In this document: piece by piece, positions 2,426 through 30,217 of the stretch
Layout: each line of letters begins with the position of its first letter
How positions within the stretch are numbered: position 1 is the stretch's first letter
Virus record (IMG/VR): IMGVR_UViG_3300045988_041693
Coordinates: 1-32,775 of that record
Direction: 5' to 3' (one strand)
DNA: 32,775 nucleotides
DNA from: a virus
Translations under genes and position numbers: made by a program
The notes under the pieces: generated by a model
What the model saw: only the letters and a program-made list of their open reading frames with translations
What the model was told of the DNA's origin: nothing
Database searches by the model: none

Positions 2426-2921
2426 CTTCTTTCCTTTCTTCTATGGGTAAATCATACCCGCCATCTTTAATCTTCTTTTTAAGGCTAAAGTATTTGCTAT
2501 TGGCAATACTATTCAATACCTTTATAAATTCATTAGACGGCTGGATAATGCGTAGGTTCTTGGTTATGTTCCTCGCGTATATAATAAGGAATATACCCGT
2601 GAGACCCTTAATCAATATCCGATAATCAATACCGGGTTCCAACATATTACAAGTAAGGGCAACAAAAAACAATATGGCGCTCGTCAAGAATAGCTCCTTA
2701 ACGGCTTGCATTGTCTTTTTGTGCTGATACGGTTTGCCCTTTCGGTGGTCTGCGAGATACCCGGCTAACCAGTTTAGGGCGGTCACTATCACGACAATAA
2801 ATATAAAGTCCCTCACATCCGAAACAACTGTCAGAACGGTAACAGCGAAAAACATTCGGAAGTAAGATTCTAAACTTTCTATCACTTGATAAGACCTATT
2901 CGCGAGTTCTGAACTATACAT
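2409..2921 (-). CDS. Putative holin (3-4 TM segments, highly charged C-terminus)
   Basis: Hydrophobic segments MFFAVTVLTVV, FIFIVVIVTALNWLAGYL, LFLTSAILFFVALTC and LTGIFLIIYA. Charged tail KKKIKDGGYDLPIEERKEDGEQQ. Lies immediately upstream of the endolysin. The track start at 2954 is a TTG; the first ATG is at 2921. Confidence 0.65.
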   Translation of the reverse strand: MYSSELANRSYQVIESLESYFRMFFAVTVLTVVSDVRDFIFIVVIVTALNWLAGYLADHRKGKPYQHKKTMQAVKELFLTSAILFFVALTCNMLEPGIDYRILIKGLTGIFLIIYARNITKNLRIIQPSNEFIKVLNSIANSKYFSLKKKIKDGGYDLPIEERKEDGEQQ

Positions 2922-3313
2922 ACCTTTATAAACCCGTCTTTTTTCATACGGCAAACCAAAGGTTCTAAAAACAAATCGGCTTTGCCCCGTTCGGCTTCAA
3001 ACCGTTTAACTTTACTTGTATCGGGAACGACTATCGAGCCTCCATACGTCTGAATCTTCATCCCGGTGGTCGTACTGTTTTGGTCTGCGATCTGCAAGTA
3101 ACGGGCAAAGGCATAATAGCATATAACCTTTTCCGCGCCTGCGAAGTCCGCACCGTCTGCTATGTACTCGTCCGGGATGGCGTCGTACATCGCCCCCACC
3201 TGGGGCAACATATCCAATAGGTCTGCCTCAAAGAAGGCTTTCTCTATCTTATTATCTTTTACGTCCGTCGCTATTTCAAATAACGTTCGGAATTTCTGTA
3301 TCGGGTATGCCAT
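2882..3313 (-). CDS. Hypothetical virion-module protein
   Basis: ORF track 2882-3337. The ATG at 3313 (MAYPIQKF) has an A-rich leader, AAATTTGAAACAGAAA. No recognisable motif. Confidence 0.55.
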   Translation of the reverse strand: MAYPIQKFRTLFEIATDVKDNKIEKAFFEADLLDMLPQVGAMYDAIPDEYIADGADFAGAEKVICYYAFARYLQIADQNSTTTGMKIQTYGGSIVVPDTSKVKRFEAERGKADLFLEPLVCRMKKDGFIKVCIVQNSRIGLIK

Positions 3314-4436
3314 TTTCTGTTTCAAATTTATTTTCAATTTCAGTTACTGACGGGTCAACCCCGAATACCTGGTACAATTCGCGTGAAATTCGTTGCCGTA
3401 CCTTTGCAAGGCTGTTTCTGTACACCTTTTGCAGTTCTTTAATAACCTCACCGGAAGCGTTCGAGAACGTTAACAGCGAGCTATCAATAAGAGGCAACGG
3501 GATATTATACGCAGCTATCGCGATATCCTTTCGTAACGGTTCCACATAAGCCTTGTACAGCTCCCTGTCTATCGGGCTGCCTAACTGGTCTACCTTGATA
3601 AACGGTTTGTCCGTGGCTACGTTCTCATCGCGAACGGTAAGCACTGAACCTGCGTTCTCACTCCCCATCATCTCGGAAAGCGTATCGCGGAATTCTTGCT
3701 GCGCCTGCTCGGTCTCGAAATCACCGTGCGACACAATACTGCACATATGGAAACCACGCCCCAAAGTACGGTTAACATACTTGCCGTTCTTGTCCTCCGC
3801 GCCCATCTCGTTACGTACCGCGTGGAACGTACTAATAGGATACGGTCGGGTAGTGCTGAGGTTCACGTATAAAAGTTGCCCCTTGTGGTTCTCGATACCT
3901 CCGCATTCCTCAACCTCGGCTGCGAAATTTTCGGGGTTGAACGTAGGGTAAACAATGGAGTTACCTTTAACACTTGTTGACTTTACGCTCTGTTTCTCCC
4001 AGTTGTTGAACACGCGCCAGCTCCTTACCGTAGGGTCATTCTTGTAATTGTCGTTCATCTCGGCACGAACGTATTCAAACGGAACGTTGTACACGTTTTT
4101 GGGCTGGTAGCCTGCTGGCGTCAAACCATACTGCACTATCCAAGCCCAGCCCTTAAAACGTGCAACGTCGTTTGCCGTAGCTTCTAACACGTCGTTCATG
4201 TTACAGCCGTTGCCGTTCGTCATTTCCGCGAAGTCCTTGTTTTTGAACCCTTCACAGATTATATTCTCCGTCATTTTTTCGACGGCAGCACTCGCTGTCT
4301 TTGACGCGTATATGAGTTCGGCAATTTCCTGCGGATAAAGGTTTCCCTCTCCGTAGTTAATCACTCTATCGCCCGTATTCGCTGAGAGCTTAAGCGCTTT
4401 TTCTACTAATAATGCTATTCGGCTGTAACCAATCAT
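3276..4436 (-). CDS. Putative portal protein
   Basis: 386 aa. The C-terminal part, MMGSENAGSVLTVRDE...IKVDQLGSPIDRELYKAYVEPLRKDIAIAAYNIPLPLI, resembles the conserved portal core pattern (G..NAGk..vl...i.v..l.....f......r..I..af.iP..l). No other portal-sized candidate was recognised. Confidence 0.5.
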   Translation of the reverse strand: MIGYSRIALLVEKALKLSANTGDRVINYGEGNLYPQEIAELIYASKTASAAVEKMTENIICEGFKNKDFAEMTNGNGCNMNDVLEATANDVARFKGWAWIVQYGLTPAGYQPKNVYNVPFEYVRAEMNDNYKNDPTVRSWRVFNNWEKQSVKSTSVKGNSIVYPTFNPENFAAEVEECGGIENHKGQLLYVNLSTTRPYPISTFHAVRNEMGAEDKNGKYVNRTLGRGFHMCSIVSHGDFETEQAQQEFRDTLSEMMGSENAGSVLTVRDENVATDKPFIKVDQLGSPIDRELYKAYVEPLRKDIAIAAYNIPLPLIDSSLLTFSNASGEVIKELQKVYRNSLAKVRQRISRELYQVFGVDPSVTEIENKFETENGIPDTEIPNVI

Positions 4437-12644: not shown

Positions 12645-13652
12645 CTAAGGTTCTACTATTTCAAATTTGCATTTAAAGTTAACCGCCCTTCCGAGCGCGC
12701 CACCTTGTGCGTTAAACGCGGTAGGGTTCATAATTGTAACACGTGCCCACTGGGCTGTGTCTATGGGGAACACCCCTGCAACATCCGTTGTACGTGACAA
12801 CTGCAAAAGCGCCTTTTCGTTATCGGCTGTTACCGTCGTGCCTACTGTGACCTCATACGATAATATCCGATTACCGCCCGAATAGTTAACCAAGTAGGTA
12901 GGCACAATACGGTATCGGTCGAAGTACATCGAATCATAAGCCCCGTGTGAGTTAAGCCAACGAAGTGTAACGCGTTTGTTTGGGTCGGGGCAATACGGGT
13001 ATTTACGTTCGAACTGCATAATACCCCAGCTACTCGCAGATGACGGTAAAAAAAACTGTAGGCCTGCTGCACCGGGTGCTCGTATCTTTCCGTTCTCCCA
13101 GACGGCAGCCGGGCTGCCCCCTACCGTGCCGTATCTTATATACTCGTTTACACTTGTCTGACCGTATATAACTTTGTTCGAGAAGGGCACACCCGTCAAA
13201 GGAGATGTTTTAGTTAATGTAAAGTCCAGCGCGTTGAACTTCCCGTTTGCATAATCCGATAGGCCGCCCGAGTATGCCTCCGAGGCAAACCGCGCATTCT
13301 TAGAAGCCACGTTAATAACGCGTAGGTTTATAGATTTACTCGTGCCGCCCTCCACGTAGTTAACGGCTACCACATCGGCAAAACGCCCGCCCGTCGCCGT
13401 GTTCATGGTTGCCTCTGTTACTGACGGGTAAAGAGCCGCCAACGTGCTAACATCAACTACGGAGTTTTCGTAGGGTACGACCTTCGCGCCTGCGATACCC
13501 GCCCCGTTACGGGAATACCGTAAAAAGATGGATGTCACCGCGCTCGTCTGTTCAAACCGTATGGGGCGGTAAATGCCTGGGGCGATGCTTCCTACCGACA
13601 GTGTACCAGCGGCTGTTACTGTTGCGTTCGTTATTAAATCACGTACTATCAT
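12645..13652 (-). CDS. Putative virion structural protein (335 aa)
   Basis: Intact ORF 3 nt upstream of the 536-aa gene. Gly/Thr/Ala/Val-rich composition typical of fibre or tail proteins. Confidence 0.45.
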   Translation of the reverse strand: MIVRDLITNATVTAAGTLSVGSIAPGIYRPIRFEQTSAVTSIFLRYSRNGAGIAGAKVVPYENSVVDVSTLAALYPSVTEATMNTATGGRFADVVAVNYVEGGTSKSINLRVINVASKNARFASEAYSGGLSDYANGKFNALDFTLTKTSPLTGVPFSNKVIYGQTSVNEYIRYGTVGGSPAAVWENGKIRAPGAAGLQFFLPSSASSWGIMQFERKYPYCPDPNKRVTLRWLNSHGAYDSMYFDRYRIVPTYLVNYSGGNRILSYEVTVGTTVTADNEKALLQLSRTTDVAGVFPIDTAQWARVTIMNPTAFNAQGGALGRAVNFKCKFEIVEP

Positions 13653-18703: not shown

Positions 18704-18804
18704 CTTGCTATATTTTTTGTTATAAACAACACTACTGCCACACACCCTAAAATGTAAATGCCTACTAACATTACGAGCATTAAAACCATTTCTGCCTTTT
18801 CCAT
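18688..18804 (-). CDS. Small single-pass membrane protein (38 aa), absent from the ORF track
   Basis: ATG at 18804 is preceded by a perfect leader consensus, AATTTAAAAACAAAGATT. Translation MEKAEMVLMLVMLVGIYILGCVAVVLFITKNIARWLKR. Confidence 0.5.
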   Translation of the reverse strand: MEKAEMVLMLVMLVGIYILGCVAVVLFITKNIARWLKR

Positions 18805-18829
18805 AATCTTTGTTTTTAAATTGTTGATA

Positions 18830-18871
18830 CAAATATAACGCTTTTCCAGTTACGTCGGTTATTTCGTTAAC
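18830..18871 (-). promoter_or_regulatory. Promoter-like element copy R3 (GTTAAC-N28-TATATTTG on the minus strand)
   Basis: Plus strand has CAAATATA at 18830-18837 and GTTAAC at 18866-18871. It lies 26 nt upstream of the 38-aa ORF start. Confidence 0.5.
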
Positions 18872-18872
18872 A

Positions 18873-19022
18873 TCATTTAAGTATTAAACTATCTTTCAGC
18901 GATAGCCCGTACTCTAATTGCTGTAACTTGAAATTACGTTGTATGCTGTCCGCCACGTTCTGTACTACGGTGCAGCCTACCAATACGAGCAGGGCTGCAA
19001 TAACTGTTATTAACTTTTTCAT
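18873..19022 (-). CDS. Small lipoprotein (49 aa), absent from the ORF track
   Basis: Hand translation MKKLITVIAALLVLVGCTVVQNVADSIQRNFKLQQLEYGLSLKDSLILK. It has a signal peptide with lipobox L-V-G-C. The ATG overlaps the SNF2 helicase stop (ATGA). Confidence 0.55.
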   Translation of the reverse strand: MKKLITVIAALLVLVGCTVVQNVADSIQRNFKLQQLEYGLSLKDSLILK

Positions 19023-20601: not shown

Positions 20602-20865
20602 TTACATTAGTTTAGTTCGATACCATACGCAGATGCTTTTGAAATCTCTTTCCTCGGGAATCTCCCCGAGTTGTTTACGGGAAAGGAAAATAACGTCTTT
20701 GGTTATATCGTCTTCAAGTTGTTTCATTACTTGTTTCTCATCTCCGTACTTCTTATCACGTACATACAGCGCTCCGCTCTTTAAGCCGATGTACAGCCCC
20801 AAGCGGTATTCAATCTCATTCTTAATTCCTTTTTTCATGATTTCTATTTTAAAATTGTCCTTCAT
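20602..20865 (-). CDS. Hypothetical protein (87 aa)
   Basis: Intact ORF in tight operon packing. No motif recognised. Confidence 0.45.
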   Translation of the reverse strand: MKDNFKIEIMKKGIKNEIEYRLGLYIGLKSGALYVRDKKYGDEKQVMKQLEDDITKDVIFLSRKQLGEIPEERDFKSICVWYRTKLM

Positions 20866-21567
20866 AAATAAATAATCTCTCGGTAGCTTTTTTATCTGGG
20901 TTAACGCAATTCTGTATTGACTTCTCCCAAATCTTTATAAAGTCGTCTGGGGCTTGGTATTCGGAAATATAAACTTTATGCCCGTCGTAAACACGCTCCC
21001 GACACCACTGCCAAAACTCATCGTGGTTCAGACCGGTTGCATATCCTGTGGTACCCATATACGGGGGGGGTCGCAGTATATTATGGACTCCTCGGGAATT
21101 CGTAGTCCCCTGTAGTCCCCGGTACGAAATTCTACGCCCTGCAAATTGGGTATCTGCTTTGCTAGGCCCCTCACAGCCTCGGATATGCGGTCTTCATACC
21201 TGCCGTTACTTCTCATGTATGCGCCTGAGTAGCCACCAAAGAATCTACCCCTGTAAGAAGCCACAAACCCCACCCAGCCCATAAAACCAAGGTCGTATTT
21301 GCCAGACCCCGAACGAAAGCATGTCCTAACATCATTATACAGTTCGCGGCTTATTTGCTCGGGGTATTTCTCCCCGGATACCAGCCCCCTAAACATGGAT
21401 ATCAAATATTCGTTGTAATCGTTTGCTATTCTATTGCCCAATACTTTGTCAGTCACATTGCACCCACCGCAAAACGGTTCTACGAAATACTGTCCTTCTT
21501 TTCTGTCTGCCAAGATTAAAGGCAAAATTTCTTTTGCTATTCTTGTTTTACCGCCCATATACTGCAT
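20849..21567 (-). pseudogene. Dam-like (D12 class) N6-adenine DNA methyltransferase, interrupted by a frameshift in a G8 (plus strand) / C8 (coding strand) run inside the DPPY motif
   Basis: The N-terminal ORF (21028-21567) carries YMGGK and EPFCGGCNV and ends ...IIYCDPP+RIWVPQ. The C-terminal ORF (20849-21058) starts MGTTGYATGLNHDEFWQW... The intact paralog at 28283-28996 reads VIYCDPPYDG...FDHDRFWHW and has G6 at the same place (28500-28505, against G8 at 21063-21070). Confidence 0.85.
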
Positions 21568-21591: not shown

Positions 21592-21930
21592 TTACAAAGA
21601 TAATGGTTTTTGCGATACCTTGGTTACTTCCTTAACCTTGTTTAAGAAGAAAGTTATCGCGTTGTCCCTGCTCTCCAAATCGTCTATGACGAATACCGTA
21701 AAGCCGAGCGCCCTTAACTTCTCGTGGACGTAGGATTGTATCTTTGTCGGCTTCTTCCCGGTGGTCTTTATCTCGGCAAAGCCTACGTAACCGCCCCGGC
21801 AAATTACCATTCTATCGGGCAACCCCTTTACAAAGGTGGATAATAATTTTATTACCCACACTTTCTTTGTTCTGTTTAGGAGCTCGGAGAATGTACGCTC
21901 TAAATCTTTTTCACTTATTATATCCTTCAT
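21592..21930 (-). CDS. VRR-NUC domain nuclease
   Basis: GLPDRMVICRGGYVGFAEIKTTGKKPTKIQSYVHEKLRALGFTVFVI matches the VRR-NUC pattern G.PD...-G..-fvEvK..g.kls..Q...-..l...G..v.v. Confidence 0.8.
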   Translation of the reverse strand: MKDIISEKDLERTFSELLNRTKKVWVIKLLSTFVKGLPDRMVICRGGYVGFAEIKTTGKKPTKIQSYVHEKLRALGFTVFVIDDLESRDNAITFFLNKVKEVTKVSQKPLSL

Positions 21931-26258: not shown

Positions 26259-28277
26259 CTAATCTTTTTTATAATAGTCTGTTATGTAACCAGCTGCTCG
26301 CAACGGGATGTTAGCCGCCCACCCTGGGGCGCTGCACATCGCGTCTATCATCGCGTTAAGCGTTAATTCTTCGTTCCCGTCTTTAGGTATTTCCGCGGCT
26401 ATTTCGTCGTGCACATGCAGCACGATGTTATAACCCATATCGAATACCTTGAAAATCGCATTAGCCAATAAATCGCGGCTTATCGCCTGCACAATGTTCT
26501 CCGTTAGCTTGCCTCCGTAAGTGTGTAACTTCGCCCATTTGCCCGTGGTTTGCTCTTGCCCCATGTAGGATATATCCTGCACGTCGAACTCACCGTTCGT
26601 TCCCGATATTGTTCTACTGCTTAAACGCGCGGAGGGGTAAAAAAGTTTTCGCCCAGACGGTAATTCTATAGTCATCGCACCGCCCTCGTATCTGAACGTT
26701 ATCGTAGAAAGATCATCAATAACGAACGTTTGTGGTCTACGTGTTCCTATACACGCTTTTGCAGCATTTTCTAAAGACTTCCATAAAGATACTACTTTTT
26801 TGTTAGCTTCTCTCCATTTTGACAATATTTGAGGTTTTTCTTCTTCTGTTAACGCTTTCTTGGTATCCATCGTAGTAAGGGCGTTAACCCCGCCCCCATA
26901 ACCTAATGCAAGCTCGGCAACCTTTCCGCGCTGTCTTAACTCATCGCCTTTATGGACGGGAACACCGAACATCTTGGAGGCAGAAGCGCAATATATATCA
27001 GCCTTTGGGTCTTTGAACAAATCAAGCCTCCATTTTTCGTTAGCCACCCAGGCAATCACACGTGCCTCAATTGCCGAGAAGTCAGCCACTGAAAAGGTGT
27101 ACCCTTCCGGGGCGATAAACACGGTACGGATAAGCTGCGATAGTATATGAGTAGGCTTGTCATATATAACTTCCATCATATCAAGGTCGTGCATCTTTGC
27201 AAGGTCTCGTGCCCCGTCAAGGTCTTCGATGTGGTTCTGTGGTAAGTTCTGTAATTGAACAAGGCGCCCAGCCCATCGCCCGGTACGGCTCGCGCCATAG
27301 TAACGAAATAGTCCTCTAATACGGTCTCCGCGTCCTGCACTTGCAAGGATGGCGGTATATTTAGCGTTCGACGTTTTACCTATCTCCCTACGTAGGTCGA
27401 TAACGTCTAATACTGCTTGCTTATCCACGTCGGTAACGTTTTTAAGGCTCGCTACGGTCTTTATAACATCTTCGATACTATTCTTATTGAGGGAATCAAT
27501 AACCACGCCCGTACGCTCTTTAATGAAGCCTTTTAACTGTGGCATGGACTTCAGAGAACTTAATCCAAAATCCTTTTCGGCTTTTTCGGTTAGACGCGCT
27601 TTATATTCTTCGTCCATATCCTGTGCGGCGCGTGCCAGCTCGAGGTCTGCCCGTATACCGTAATCGTTTATACGCTGGTCTGCCGCATATATCTTTTGCT
27701 CTATCTCGGGAAATTCAAACCGTGATAACTTGCCGAATATTTCCTTTTCAGAAAGCACGTCATAGCGGAGGTATTCTTTGAAATCTTCCCAGGCTTCCGG
27801 GTCATGCTCGGGAAGGTTACGGGTACGCCCACCGTTCGTTTTGGTAGGTTTGCACGGTACGGAGAAATAACGGATAAGGTTTTTTCCCGTGCCTAATTTC
27901 TTATCCTGCAAATCGAGAATCCGCGAAACCGCGTCAAGCGATGGCGGCATACCGCAATAGAGCGCCATATTAGCCGTACAGAAAAATCGCATAGGGCTTA
28001 TATCAAAACCGTATTCCTTCAAACAGACGCGCTCAAACGTAGCGTTGTGGGCTACTATAACTACTTCCGGGTCATTAGCTACAGAGGTGAACAACTCGTT
28101 AAACTCTGTACACCCGTTGGGGGTTGTAAGGTCTATTATTGATACCTCCGTGTCGGTGTCCCACATGTAACCGCACAACAGTATTTCAAATGCAGGGTCT
28201 TCACAATACTTGTAGTTGCCAGCGCTTTTAATATCTGTTTCGGAATAGGTTTCAAAATCAATGAATAAATGTTTCAT
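26259..28277 (-). CDS. Family A DNA polymerase with an N-terminal 3'-5' exonuclease domain
   Basis: Exo I FIDFETYS. Pol motif A DFSAIEARV. Motif B RQRGKVAELALGYGGG. Motif C LHVHDEI. Confidence 0.92.
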   Translation of the reverse strand: MKHLFIDFETYSETDIKSAGNYKYCEDPAFEILLCGYMWDTDTEVSIIDLTTPNGCTEFNELFTSVANDPEVVIVAHNATFERVCLKEYGFDISPMRFFCTANMALYCGMPPSLDAVSRILDLQDKKLGTGKNLIRYFSVPCKPTKTNGGRTRNLPEHDPEAWEDFKEYLRYDVLSEKEIFGKLSRFEFPEIEQKIYAADQRINDYGIRADLELARAAQDMDEEYKARLTEKAEKDFGLSSLKSMPQLKGFIKERTGVVIDSLNKNSIEDVIKTVASLKNVTDVDKQAVLDVIDLRREIGKTSNAKYTAILASAGRGDRIRGLFRYYGASRTGRWAGRLVQLQNLPQNHIEDLDGARDLAKMHDLDMMEVIYDKPTHILSQLIRTVFIAPEGYTFSVADFSAIEARVIAWVANEKWRLDLFKDPKADIYCASASKMFGVPVHKGDELRQRGKVAELALGYGGGVNALTTMDTKKALTEEEKPQILSKWREANKKVVSLWKSLENAAKACIGTRRPQTFVIDDLSTITFRYEGGAMTIELPSGRKLFYPSARLSSRTISGTNGEFDVQDISYMGQEQTTGKWAKLHTYGGKLTENIVQAISRDLLANAIFKVFDMGYNIVLHVHDEIAAEIPKDGNEELTLNAMIDAMCSAPGWAANIPLRAAGYITDYYKKD

Positions 28278-28282
28278 ATTTG

Positions 28283-28996
28283 TTAATTAATTAATGATAT
28301 GTATAGTTTTTCTGTTGCCCGTTTACTTGTCCTCCCGAGAGAGGAATTTATATCGAGGCTCCACGTTGGTATGAATAGGTCAGATCTTGTGGAATATTCG
28401 CTTACAAAAACCGTGTTACTTTCGGACATCATATCAGCCCAATGCCAAAATCTATCATGGTCAAACCCTCCGTTTTTGTATAGCTTTGTGCCGTCATACG
28501 GGGGGTCGCAATATATAACACTGTTTTCGGGTATTTCCATTTCATTGTATGGCAGTGAAGATAGAGTTAATGAGGGCATGTCTCGCAGGGACTTCACAGT
28601 TTTATTGAAATTTCTTATAGCCTCTTTTTGGTAATCCCTTTTTCCCTTCGCAGTAGGACATCCATTTCCCACGAACCCTTCGAAATATCGACCATTATAC
28701 GATGCACAAAAACCGATATACGCAGTTAATGCTTTGTCGTATTCTCCGTTTTTCGCTGCCCTATACATTTCAATATCTACGTACTCGGGGAATGTACGCC
28801 CCGAAATATCTTCTTTAAATAAACATATTAGGTCTTCGTTTAGATCGTTCGCAAAAACTCTCCCAGCAAAATGGGGGGTTATGTTACACCCTCCGCAGAA
28901 CGGCTCAAACAACATTCCGTTTGATTTCTTTACAGCATCGTTTATTATTGGGGCCGTGTGTTTGGCAAACATTGCCTTACTTCCCATGTAATTCAT
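28283..28996 (-). CDS. Dam-like (D12 class) N6-adenine DNA methyltransferase, intact
   Basis: YMGSK, EPFCGGCNI (FxGxG AdoMet motif) and IYCDPPY (motif IV). Confidence 0.88.
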   Translation of the reverse strand: MNYMGSKAMFAKHTAPIINDAVKKSNGMLFEPFCGGCNITPHFAGRVFANDLNEDLICLFKEDISGRTFPEYVDIEMYRAAKNGEYDKALTAYIGFCASYNGRYFEGFVGNGCPTAKGKRDYQKEAIRNFNKTVKSLRDMPSLTLSSLPYNEMEIPENSVIYCDPPYDGTKLYKNGGFDHDRFWHWADMMSESNTVFVSEYSTRSDLFIPTWSLDINSSLGRTSKRATEKLYISLIN

Positions 28997-29113: not shown

Positions 29114-30217
29114 TTAATCGGCAAAGATGGGTGAGTAGAAAATAAAACCTCGCTTTTCGTTCAGAATAACGTATGTTTGCTGCGGATCTTCGTATGCCAG
29201 CCCGTGCCCCATTGCGAAAGCGTCGAAGCCTTTCAGAGAACCGTTCACGCAAACCTCTTTAGTGTATATCATTTGGTGGTAATGTCCTATGAACGCCTTA
29301 TCTATCTTGATTGTTTGGTTTAGCTTGGCGTACCATTTAAACATACTCGGGTATATGCCGCCTATGCCGCCCGCGCTTCTAAATTGATGCCCGTGGCAGA
29401 ACAGAATCTTTTTCCCGTATATATCCAGGTAGGCGAATTCACTTTCGGGGATAATGAACTCGAATTTTGTCAAGCCCATAAGTGTTAACGTCTGCTCAAT
29501 GTCCTTGTACATAAAGTATTCGTGGTTCATTGCGAAGCCGTTCGAAAATTGCATTTTCTTCGTTGTTCTCGTATGGTTTCCGCATATGCCTACAACTACT
29601 ATTTTTTGAAGGTCCGGCAGTTCGTCGTGGATAGCCTTAAGCCCCGATATTACCAGCGTCTTTACGAAATGTATCCCCTGCATGGGGGACATGCTGTTTG
29701 TTTGCGCCAGTTCGTCGTGAATGTAGCCGCCTATCATATCACCAATAAGACCTACTACCAGGTTATCTACTGGCTTTTTCTTAACCATATAGATAGCGTT
29801 TGAGAAGAAATTTTTTATTCGCTTCTCGGCTATTTCCCGGTTATATTCGTTCTTTCCTAAAACGGTGGAGGGCTTAACCACTTCGTCCGCGTGCCAGTCA
29901 CTGGCTATCAAAAAGCCCGTGTTACTTTCGTCAAGCGTTGATTTCGCTTTTGCGTGGATTTCTATCAGTTCGATAGGCGCGATATCCTTTTTTAGGTCTA
30001 TGATGCCTTTTAGTTCTTCTTCGGTATACAGCGTTTGAAGCTCTGCTATTACCGGGTCTACCACTACTTCGATAGGTTCGCTACCCGATACGGTATAGCC
30101 GTTCATGCGTGCGTTCCAATACGCTGTATCCCGCTTTGTATATTTCTTCACGGGTTTGCCCGTTGCCTTTGAAATTCTAACCCCTTGTGCGTTTATGTAT
30201 GAATCACTTTTTCCCAT
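29114..30217 (-). CDS. Calcineurin-like metallophosphoesterase (Mre11/SbcD-like nuclease or phosphatase)
   Basis: Ordered motifs DWH (ASDWHAD), GDMIGG, GNH (CGNHTR), HGH (FCHGHQF) and GHYH. Confidence 0.85.
   Translation of the reverse strand: MGKSDSYINAQGVRISKATGKPVKKYTKRDTAYWNARMNGYTVSGSEPIEVVVDPVIAELQTLYTEEELKGIIDLKKDIAPIELIEIHAKAKSTLDESNTGFLIASDWHADEVVKPSTVLGKNEYNREIAEKRIKNFFSNAIYMVKKKPVDNLVVGLIGDMIGGYIHDELAQTNSMSPMQGIHFVKTLVISGLKAIHDELPDLQKIVVVGICGNHTRTTKKMQFSNGFAMNHEYFMYKDIEQTLTLMGLTKFEFIIPESEFAYLDIYGKKILFCHGHQFRSAGGIGGIYPSMFKWYAKLNQTIKIDKAFIGHYHQMIYTKEVCVNGSLKGFDAFAMGHGLAYEDPQQTYVILNEKRGFIFYSPIFAD

Follow-up and report, generated by a model that had tools for sequence, protein, structure and literature searches.

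The window analysed here is a whole stretch of 32,775 nucleotides (nt), positions 1 to 32,775 of IMG/VR virus record IMGVR_UViG_3300045988_041693. It represents an uncultured siphovirus-type phage of ~33 kb, in which a D12-class methyltransferase gene on the minus strand is broken within the codons of its own catalytic motif IV, Asp-Pro-Pro-Tyr (DPPY). The minus-strand genes are tightly tiled, and the methyltransferase is the only one that is visibly split. At the site of the break, positions 21063-21070, the plus strand reads as a G8 run (tac-GGGGGGGG-tcgcagtat; in wider context ...CCCATATAC-GGGGGGGG-TCGCAGTATAT...), which is a C8 run in the sense strand. According to the list of open reading frames (ORFs), the first ORF, of 179 amino acids (aa), ends ...IIYCDPPRIWVPQDMQPV (IIYCDPP-RIWVPQDMQPV, followed by the stop), the second, of 69 aa, begins MGTTGYATGLNHDEFWQW..., and the two overlap by 31 nt. 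The coordinates of these features and of their neighbours are collected in table 1.

Table 1. Features of the frameshifted methyltransferase locus, its intact paralog and the adjacent genes in the window
Feature	Coordinates	Strand	Remarks
C8 homopolymer in the Asp-Pro-Pro-Tyr codons of catalytic motif IV	21063..21070	-	+2 relative to C6 orthologs
N-terminal ORF, 179 aa	21028..21567	-	motif I PFCGGCN; ends DPP + RIWVPQDMQPV out of frame, then stop
C-terminal remainder ORF, 69 aa	20849..21058	-	MGTTGY...EGQF, then stop; -1 frame; ATG corresponds to the Met conserved after DPPY
Whole frameshifted D12 methyltransferase gene	20849..21567	-	238 aa once C6 is restored
Intact paralogous D12 methyltransferase, 237 aa	28283..28996	-	Pfam PF02086; 38% identical to the C6-restored protein
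DPP-coding C6 tract of the intact paralog	28500..28505	-	internal control tract
Upstream neighbour, 112 aa	21592..21930	-	VRR-NUC/endonuclease by annotation in relatives
Downstream ORF, 87 aa	20602..20865	-	overlaps the 3' end of the methyltransferase gene by 17 nt at its start

The gene was re-translated with tract lengths of 4 to 11 C. A tract of C6 gives a 238-aa protein with DPPY and a tract of C9 a 239-aa protein with DPPPY; C5, C8 and C11 lead to the truncated frame that is observed, and C4, C7 and C10 to the third frame. The tract is accordingly a repeat inside an ORF whose length sets the frame (C6 and C9 in frame; C5, C7 and C8 out), as in a contingency locus. As encoded, motif IV reads DPP-R with a stop 11 codons later, no continuous ORF with an intact motif IV, (D/N/S)PP(Y/F/W), is present in 20849-21567, and DPPY is regained only by shortening the tract to C6. 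Judged from its sequence, the product of this gene should lack the catalytic Tyr and should be inactive as an enzyme.

Both methyltransferases of the window belong to Pfam family PF02086 (MethyltransfD12), with scores of 70 bits for the C6-restored protein and 49 bits for the intact paralog at a cut-off of 22. In the PDB, the C6-restored protein matches T4 Dam (E = 9e-6) over an alignment that spans motif I and DPPY, and its EPFCGGCNV, aligned with DLFCGGLSV of T4 Dam, provides the FxGxG-like motif I that binds S-adenosylmethionine. The paralog keeps six bases at the corresponding site (plus strand ...GTCATAC-GGGGGG-TCGCAATATAT..., that is, catac-GGGGGG-tcgcaatat, with G6 at 28500-28505). It lies between a 367-aa gene (29114-30217) and the family-A DNA polymerase gene (26259-28277), a position beside the polymerase gene at which two relatives of the window (contigs L107 and L109) have no methyltransferase, and it looks like a lineage-specific insertion. 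An earlier note, made from the letters of the window alone, had described the G8 and G6 runs, the two D12 paralogs, the break directly after DPP with its two ORFs, and the restoration of DPPY by six bases and of DPPPY by nine; the sequence, the Pfam matches, the ORF list and the re-translation agree with all of this.

G8 is the only run of G or C in the 32.8-kb window that exceeds six bases. By composition an 8-base run of G or C is not improbable (we estimate ~0.5 expected), and its weight therefore comes not from rarity but from its position and from the comparison with orthologs, which have six bases there. Orthologs at the equivalent locus occur in the cultured phages BU2-1, BX788P2 and BU730P1 (~81-83% nt identity over the locus), the last two of which have two tandem copies each, and all five gene copies read GA-CCCCCC-RTATATG. 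The same site is C6 or CCCACC in 11 orthologs from IMG/VR and in about a dozen from metagenomes, the broken ones excepted, and every metagenomic ortholog that is in frame carries one of these two forms. Since all intact orthologs have six bases at this site, the C8 of the window represents an insertion of +2. The C6-restored window protein is 84-88% identical to intact orthologs and contains no further frameshift or stop.

The C8 reading is found in an ENA scaffold (CHAT13-1_SAMEA2152063, 32,805 nt), in a Logan contig (run ERR321592) and in an NCBI metagenome contig (GCA_900523245.1), each of which is 100% identical to the window across 7.5-12.5 kb. An exact look-up of the C6, C7 and C9 products of the window backbone, with both starts, returned none in a collection of 15 billion proteins.

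The tract is struck repeatedly in relatives of the gene. The 90% protein cluster of the window product has four members, two of which are the C8 product itself from different start codons; the other two are P0003, which ends ...CDP-RIWVPQDMQPV (C5), and P0004, which ends ...CDPP-VYGYHRIF... (C7), so that all three distinct members are out of frame. For a wider census the N-terminal 168 aa served as query, so that truncated and full-length relatives rank equally, and the 120 nearest clusters at 90% identity were taken as units; tract lengths were read from assembled contigs and from protein tails. About 103 of these clusters are full length, nine have a C5-type tail (P0003, P0111, P0118, P0243-P0247 and P0250) and four a C7-type tail (P0112, P0113, P0115 and P0248). 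The broken clusters (~13/120) end exactly at CDP or CDPP with the corresponding frameshift tail. Each broken copy has a nearest intact relative of its own, at 84-99% identity, and the events are therefore independent.

Seven further contigs, including four from sequencing runs other than that of the window, confirm such breaks in DNA: C5 in L107 (SRR18498577), L109 (ERR13986655) and metagenome locus L049, and C7 in L108 (SRR32496984), L110 (SRR21601779), IMG/VR locus L024 and metagenome locus L048. Lengths of C5, C6, C7 and C8 are thus all present among orthologs. When only loci chosen without regard to truncation are counted, there are 19 unique orthologs, of which ~3 have the break at the tract and one has it at another place. 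Counted per sequence, the broken fraction is only a few percent because the intact clusters have many more members. The family of the paralog shares the tract (GACCCCCC), and one of its ~43 close clusters is broken there (P0164, ...CDP-LIWIRQ).

The distribution of the methyltransferase gene shows that it is dispensable. In 10 of 13 cultured relatives the flanks of the locus are directly adjacent with no such gene between them, and in two relatives it is tandemly duplicated. L107 and L109, which are broken at the tract, do not have the second paralog beside the polymerase gene, and loss of the gene is therefore independent of a back-up copy. Other routes of inactivation are seen as well. In cultured Bacteroides ovatus phages, 55%-identical orthologs encode DPPY as GACCCTCCG (GAC-CCT-CCG), without a run. 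Among three phages isolated on one B. ovatus strain, BK687P5 (L111) has a frameshift at another run, C6 to C7, 25 nt upstream, BK687P1 (L112) has one at a T run (+2), and the sibling BK687P6 (L113) is intact; the methyltransferase pieces of the two broken phages are annotated as hypothetical proteins. Vibrio phage 141E35-1, which we considered as a further example of a break in DPPY, was rejected, because its methyltransferase is split at other positions.

We regard the gene of the window as a young loss-of-function allele that arose by replication slippage in a dispensable anti-restriction methyltransferase gene, at a site which is a hotspot throughout the family, and we give this explanation a probability of roughly 0.6. 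In this phage lineage the Asp-Pro-Pro of motif IV is encoded GAC-CCC-CCN, which creates an uninterrupted C6 run; a replicating polymerase would slip on this run, which in the window has grown to C8. The frame is left directly after DPP, with loss of the catalytic Tyr and a stop 11 codons later. Such a loss would be tolerated in a dispensable gene, all the more in a phage with another D12 methyltransferase, and independent hits on this tract are numerous in related gut Bacteroides phages. The step from C6 to C8 may have been taken as two single-base changes, or as one rarer 2-base slip, in a copy already free of selection. Among the five explanations that the earlier note had listed for the break, a genuine pseudogene or loss-of-function allele is the best supported.

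The nearest relative of the window gene provides information about the age of the lesion. In the methyltransferase gene L107 has 97.7% nt identity to the window, and in the flanks 77-87%, a contrast that suggests recombinational exchange of the gene. The copy in L107 is broken too, its C5 tract leading to the same frame as C8, and it has a further lesion close to the 3' end, where a TTAT repeat has grown by 8 nt (L107:8690-8720). Between the two genes there are 12.5 nonsynonymous and 4.5 synonymous changes, corresponding to an omega of 0.73 (1.03 in the N-terminal part), compared with 0.14-0.21 between intact orthologs and 0.17-0.39 in the remaining pairwise comparisons. The binomial P against an omega of 0.25 is 0.008-0.03, and the ratio is compatible with neutrality. 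Constraint on these two gene copies looks relaxed, and the data suggest that the copy common to both had been off for some time, with its tract drifting.

Several observations weigh against this interpretation and limit its strength. The signal of relaxed selection comes from only 17 substitutions. The restored window protein looks fully functional, with five rare residues compared with a median of four in 102 intact orthologs. This absence of an excess, together with the lack of a second lesion in the window copy, implies a break that is either recent or potentially reversible. A single lesion is likewise all that is seen in six of the other seven broken copies confirmed in DNA. The three identical assemblies probably represent one sample processed by different pipelines. 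Finally, 13 of 120 broken clusters here versus one of 43 in the family of the paralog is not a significant difference (Fisher P = 0.12). The instability is a property of the tract, and gene-specific selection for loss is not demonstrated by these counts.

The strongest competitor, which we consider possible and clearly less probable than permanent loss, is that the C tract is a contingency locus, i.e. a hypermutable, reversible ON/OFF switch of phage self-methylation, and that the window shows its OFF phase. Such a switch would let the phage population spread its risk over hosts with restriction enzymes that N6-methyladenine (m6A) blocks and hosts with defences that attack methylated DNA. It would agree with the lengths of 5, 6, 7 and 8 among close relatives, which include gains as well as losses in many independent events, with the otherwise undamaged state of most broken copies, that of the window among them, and with the out-of-frame state of the entire 90% cluster of the window at C8, C5 and C7. 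The window is also depleted of palindromes relative to a trinucleotide-based expectation over its whole length (GATC 20 observed versus 80 expected, GGCC 16 versus 98, CTAG 4 versus 61), which suggests a pressure to avoid restriction that includes the canonical Dam site, and the four-fold depletion of GATC fits restriction pressure at a site of Dam type.

A working length of just C6 speaks against a switch; it is shorter than the tracts known from phase variation, which in Helicobacter pylori methyltransferases have 10-13 bases (PMC6362088). Selection that keeps a tract long and free of synonymous interruptions is not seen here: the run is replaced by CCCACC in close orthologs and by CCTCC, CCACC or CCGCC in distant ones, orthologs without the run break at other homopolymers, and outright deletion of the gene is frequent. 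C8 is two steps away from the ON state, and neither of the lengths one step from it, C7 (out of frame) or C9 (DPPPY), is expected to give a functional enzyme. Neither the assembled sequences nor the protein collection contain ON and OFF alleles in near-identical backgrounds, and the collection holds no alternative allele of the window backbone. For the two closest broken copies omega is near 1, and one of them is doubly lesioned. Of the slipped-strand phase variation that the earlier note had proposed, the slippage itself is borne out by the C5-C8 lengths among relatives, whereas reversibility, heterogeneity and selection to keep the tract find no counterpart in the assemblies and proteins compared.

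For the Dam-like family of Bacteroides phages as a whole, the idea that the DPP-coding C tract is a true contingency locus, which mixes methylating and non-methylating virions, is doubtful, and we rate it slightly below a switch in the window itself. If it were true, a virus would carry an epigenetic switch resembling a phasevarion, sited inside a catalytic motif, and its population would hedge between hosts with methylation-sensitive and hosts with methylation-dependent restriction. A literature search for phase-variable phage methyltransferases and for homopolymers in DPPY returned only bacterial examples and general reviews; in the literature searched, no phage Dam gene is described as controlled by a homopolymer switch. 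A search for how the cultured OP172xxx phages had been sequenced also found nothing. A single amplicon at the tract would reveal whether the phage populations are epigenetically heterogeneous.

That the extra bases are a sequencing or assembly artefact, and that the real phage carries C6 or C9 and an intact gene, is improbable. Homopolymers are the classic place for indel errors, some of the broken relatives (L048 and L049) come from contigs at ~3x coverage, and P0244, P0246 and P0250 have odd substitutions that suggest noisy data. Against this, three assemblies from different pipelines agree on C8, and no C6, C7 or C9 protein of this backbone was found. An error of +2 within an 8-mer is atypical for Illumina data, and from the naming of the sample we presume that it belongs to an Illumina-era human gut cohort. 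All remaining genes of the window tile intact, including a 335-aa ORF that contains an A8 run at 13048-13055. The polymerase, VapE and SNF2 genes of L107 and L109 are whole despite the broken methyltransferase, as are the VapE and SNF2 genes of L108, whose polymerase gene is cut only by the end of the contig; a generalised homopolymer error is therefore not the cause. A whole-genome alignment of cultured BK687P5 with BK687P6 (95-97% identity) likewise showed no uncompensated 1-nt indel within the annotated coding sequences other than the one in the methyltransferase gene.

Recoding, in which a -1 ribosomal frameshift on C_CCC_CCC or slippage of RNA polymerase on C8 would restore a full-length enzyme, is very improbable. 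The heptamer C_CCC_CCC lies in the zero frame and agrees with the slippery pattern X_XXY_YYZ, and a -1 shift would join the two ORFs through the junction peptide DPPPYMGTTGYATGLNHDEFWQWCR. The -1 product would contain DPPPY and not DPPY, however, and an extra residue in motif IV, (D/N/S)PP(Y/F/W), would be expected to push the catalytic Tyr out of place. The 88 nt downstream show no structure (they fold at -20.7 kcal/mol versus a shuffle mean of -22.7, z = +0.71), and the arrangement is not conserved: most orthologs are in frame, and the broken frames, C5/C8 versus C7, would need opposite shifts. Known sites of transcriptional slippage are runs of A or T of ~9 or more; the run here is C8 and is not conserved. 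Least credible of all is an active two-piece methyltransferase formed by the 179-aa and 69-aa products, for despite the ATG directly after the break and the overlap of the ORFs, the Tyr of DPPY is in neither piece (DPPR and the MGTTG start), the ATG encodes the usual Met that intact orthologs conserve in DPPYM and is not a new start, and no lineage has conserved the split.

For annotation, the break means that the two ORFs should be recorded as one frameshifted methyltransferase pseudogene and not as two genes. More generally, gut Bacteroides siphophages possess an accessory Dam-like gene that is gained, duplicated and deleted, and that in about one in ten lineages is knocked out at its own C6 run. 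Selection on phage self-methylation in the gut thus appears to be weak or fluctuating, and this agrees with the rapid and transient gain and loss of methyltransferases on mobile elements that has been reported in the Bacteroides fragilis group (PMC10333322).

The window is ~77% identical to cultured Bacteroides uniformis phages such as EMB1/2, BU1-1, BU2-1 and BU183P1, and the methyltransferase gene is flanked by a VRR-NUC-type nuclease gene and by small ORFs upstream of the SNF2 helicase gene. The product of the upstream neighbour (21592-21930) had no match in the Pfam scan of the window; in Vibrio phage 141E35-1 (L114), as in the Bacteroides phages, the gene immediately preceding that of the D12 methyltransferase encodes a VRR-NUC nuclease. 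The 3' end of the methyltransferase gene contains a (TTAT)n microsatellite (~20866-20885), situated shortly before the overlap with the ORF at 20602-20865. An A6 run just upstream of this microsatellite (GATAAAAAAGC) is a frameshift site in the orthologs P0006, P0109, P0110 and P0123.

Three observations concern other parts of the material. An intergenic segment of ~100 nt (18796-18896) shares 90-95% identity with Phocaeicola phages that are unrelated elsewhere (BV739P1, BD26P1-5 and others); it includes GTTATATTTG, which we take to be similar to the Bacteroides -7 promoter motif TAnnTTTG, and a tRNA search found none in this segment and none in the window. The minus-strand ORFs 2409-2954 (181 aa) and 2882-3337 (151 aa) overlap by 73 nt, which may indicate a programmed frameshift or another split gene. 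The contig OMGF01000181.1 (64,546 nt) contains one ortholog twice (L042 and L043), ~32 kb apart, and is probably a head-to-tail concatemer of a ~32-kb phage genome.

Four known systems can be compared with this locus. With the orphan D12 methyltransferases of T4 Dam type, which are phage-borne and serve anti-restriction self-methylation (PDB 1yf3/1q0s), the gene shares PF02086, motif I (PFCGGCN versus LFCGGLS), the DPPY of the restored motif IV, a length of ~240 aa and its location on a phage without a cognate endonuclease; it differs in that the window gene is frameshifted in motif IV and has a second, intact paralog beside it in the genome. Programmed frameshifting, as in dnaX, IS transposases and the phage tail chaperone G/GT, likewise joins overlapping ORFs through a homopolymeric slippery run, but here the shift lacks both conservation and a stimulatory structure, and its product would have an altered catalytic motif.

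The phase-variable methyltransferases of bacteria (the Type III mod genes of Haemophilus and Neisseria, and those of H. pylori with poly-G/C) also contain a simple repeat inside the methyltransferase ORF, the length of which varies among relatives by slipped-strand mispairing and sets the frame. Unlike those phasevarions, the working tract has 6 bases, is a by-product of the DPP codons and is not conserved as a run; furthermore, the genome is that of a lytic-type phage, and the break lies in the catalytic motif and not near the 5' end. With homopolymer-frameshift pseudogenes the locus shares one indel, located in the gene's longest G/C run, the frequent absence of the gene from relatives, and a closest relative with a second lesion and an omega of ~1. 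What sets it apart from ordinary frameshift pseudogenes is that one tract of six bases has been struck in at least 13 independent lineages, a recurrence above that which is usually reported for a run of such short length.

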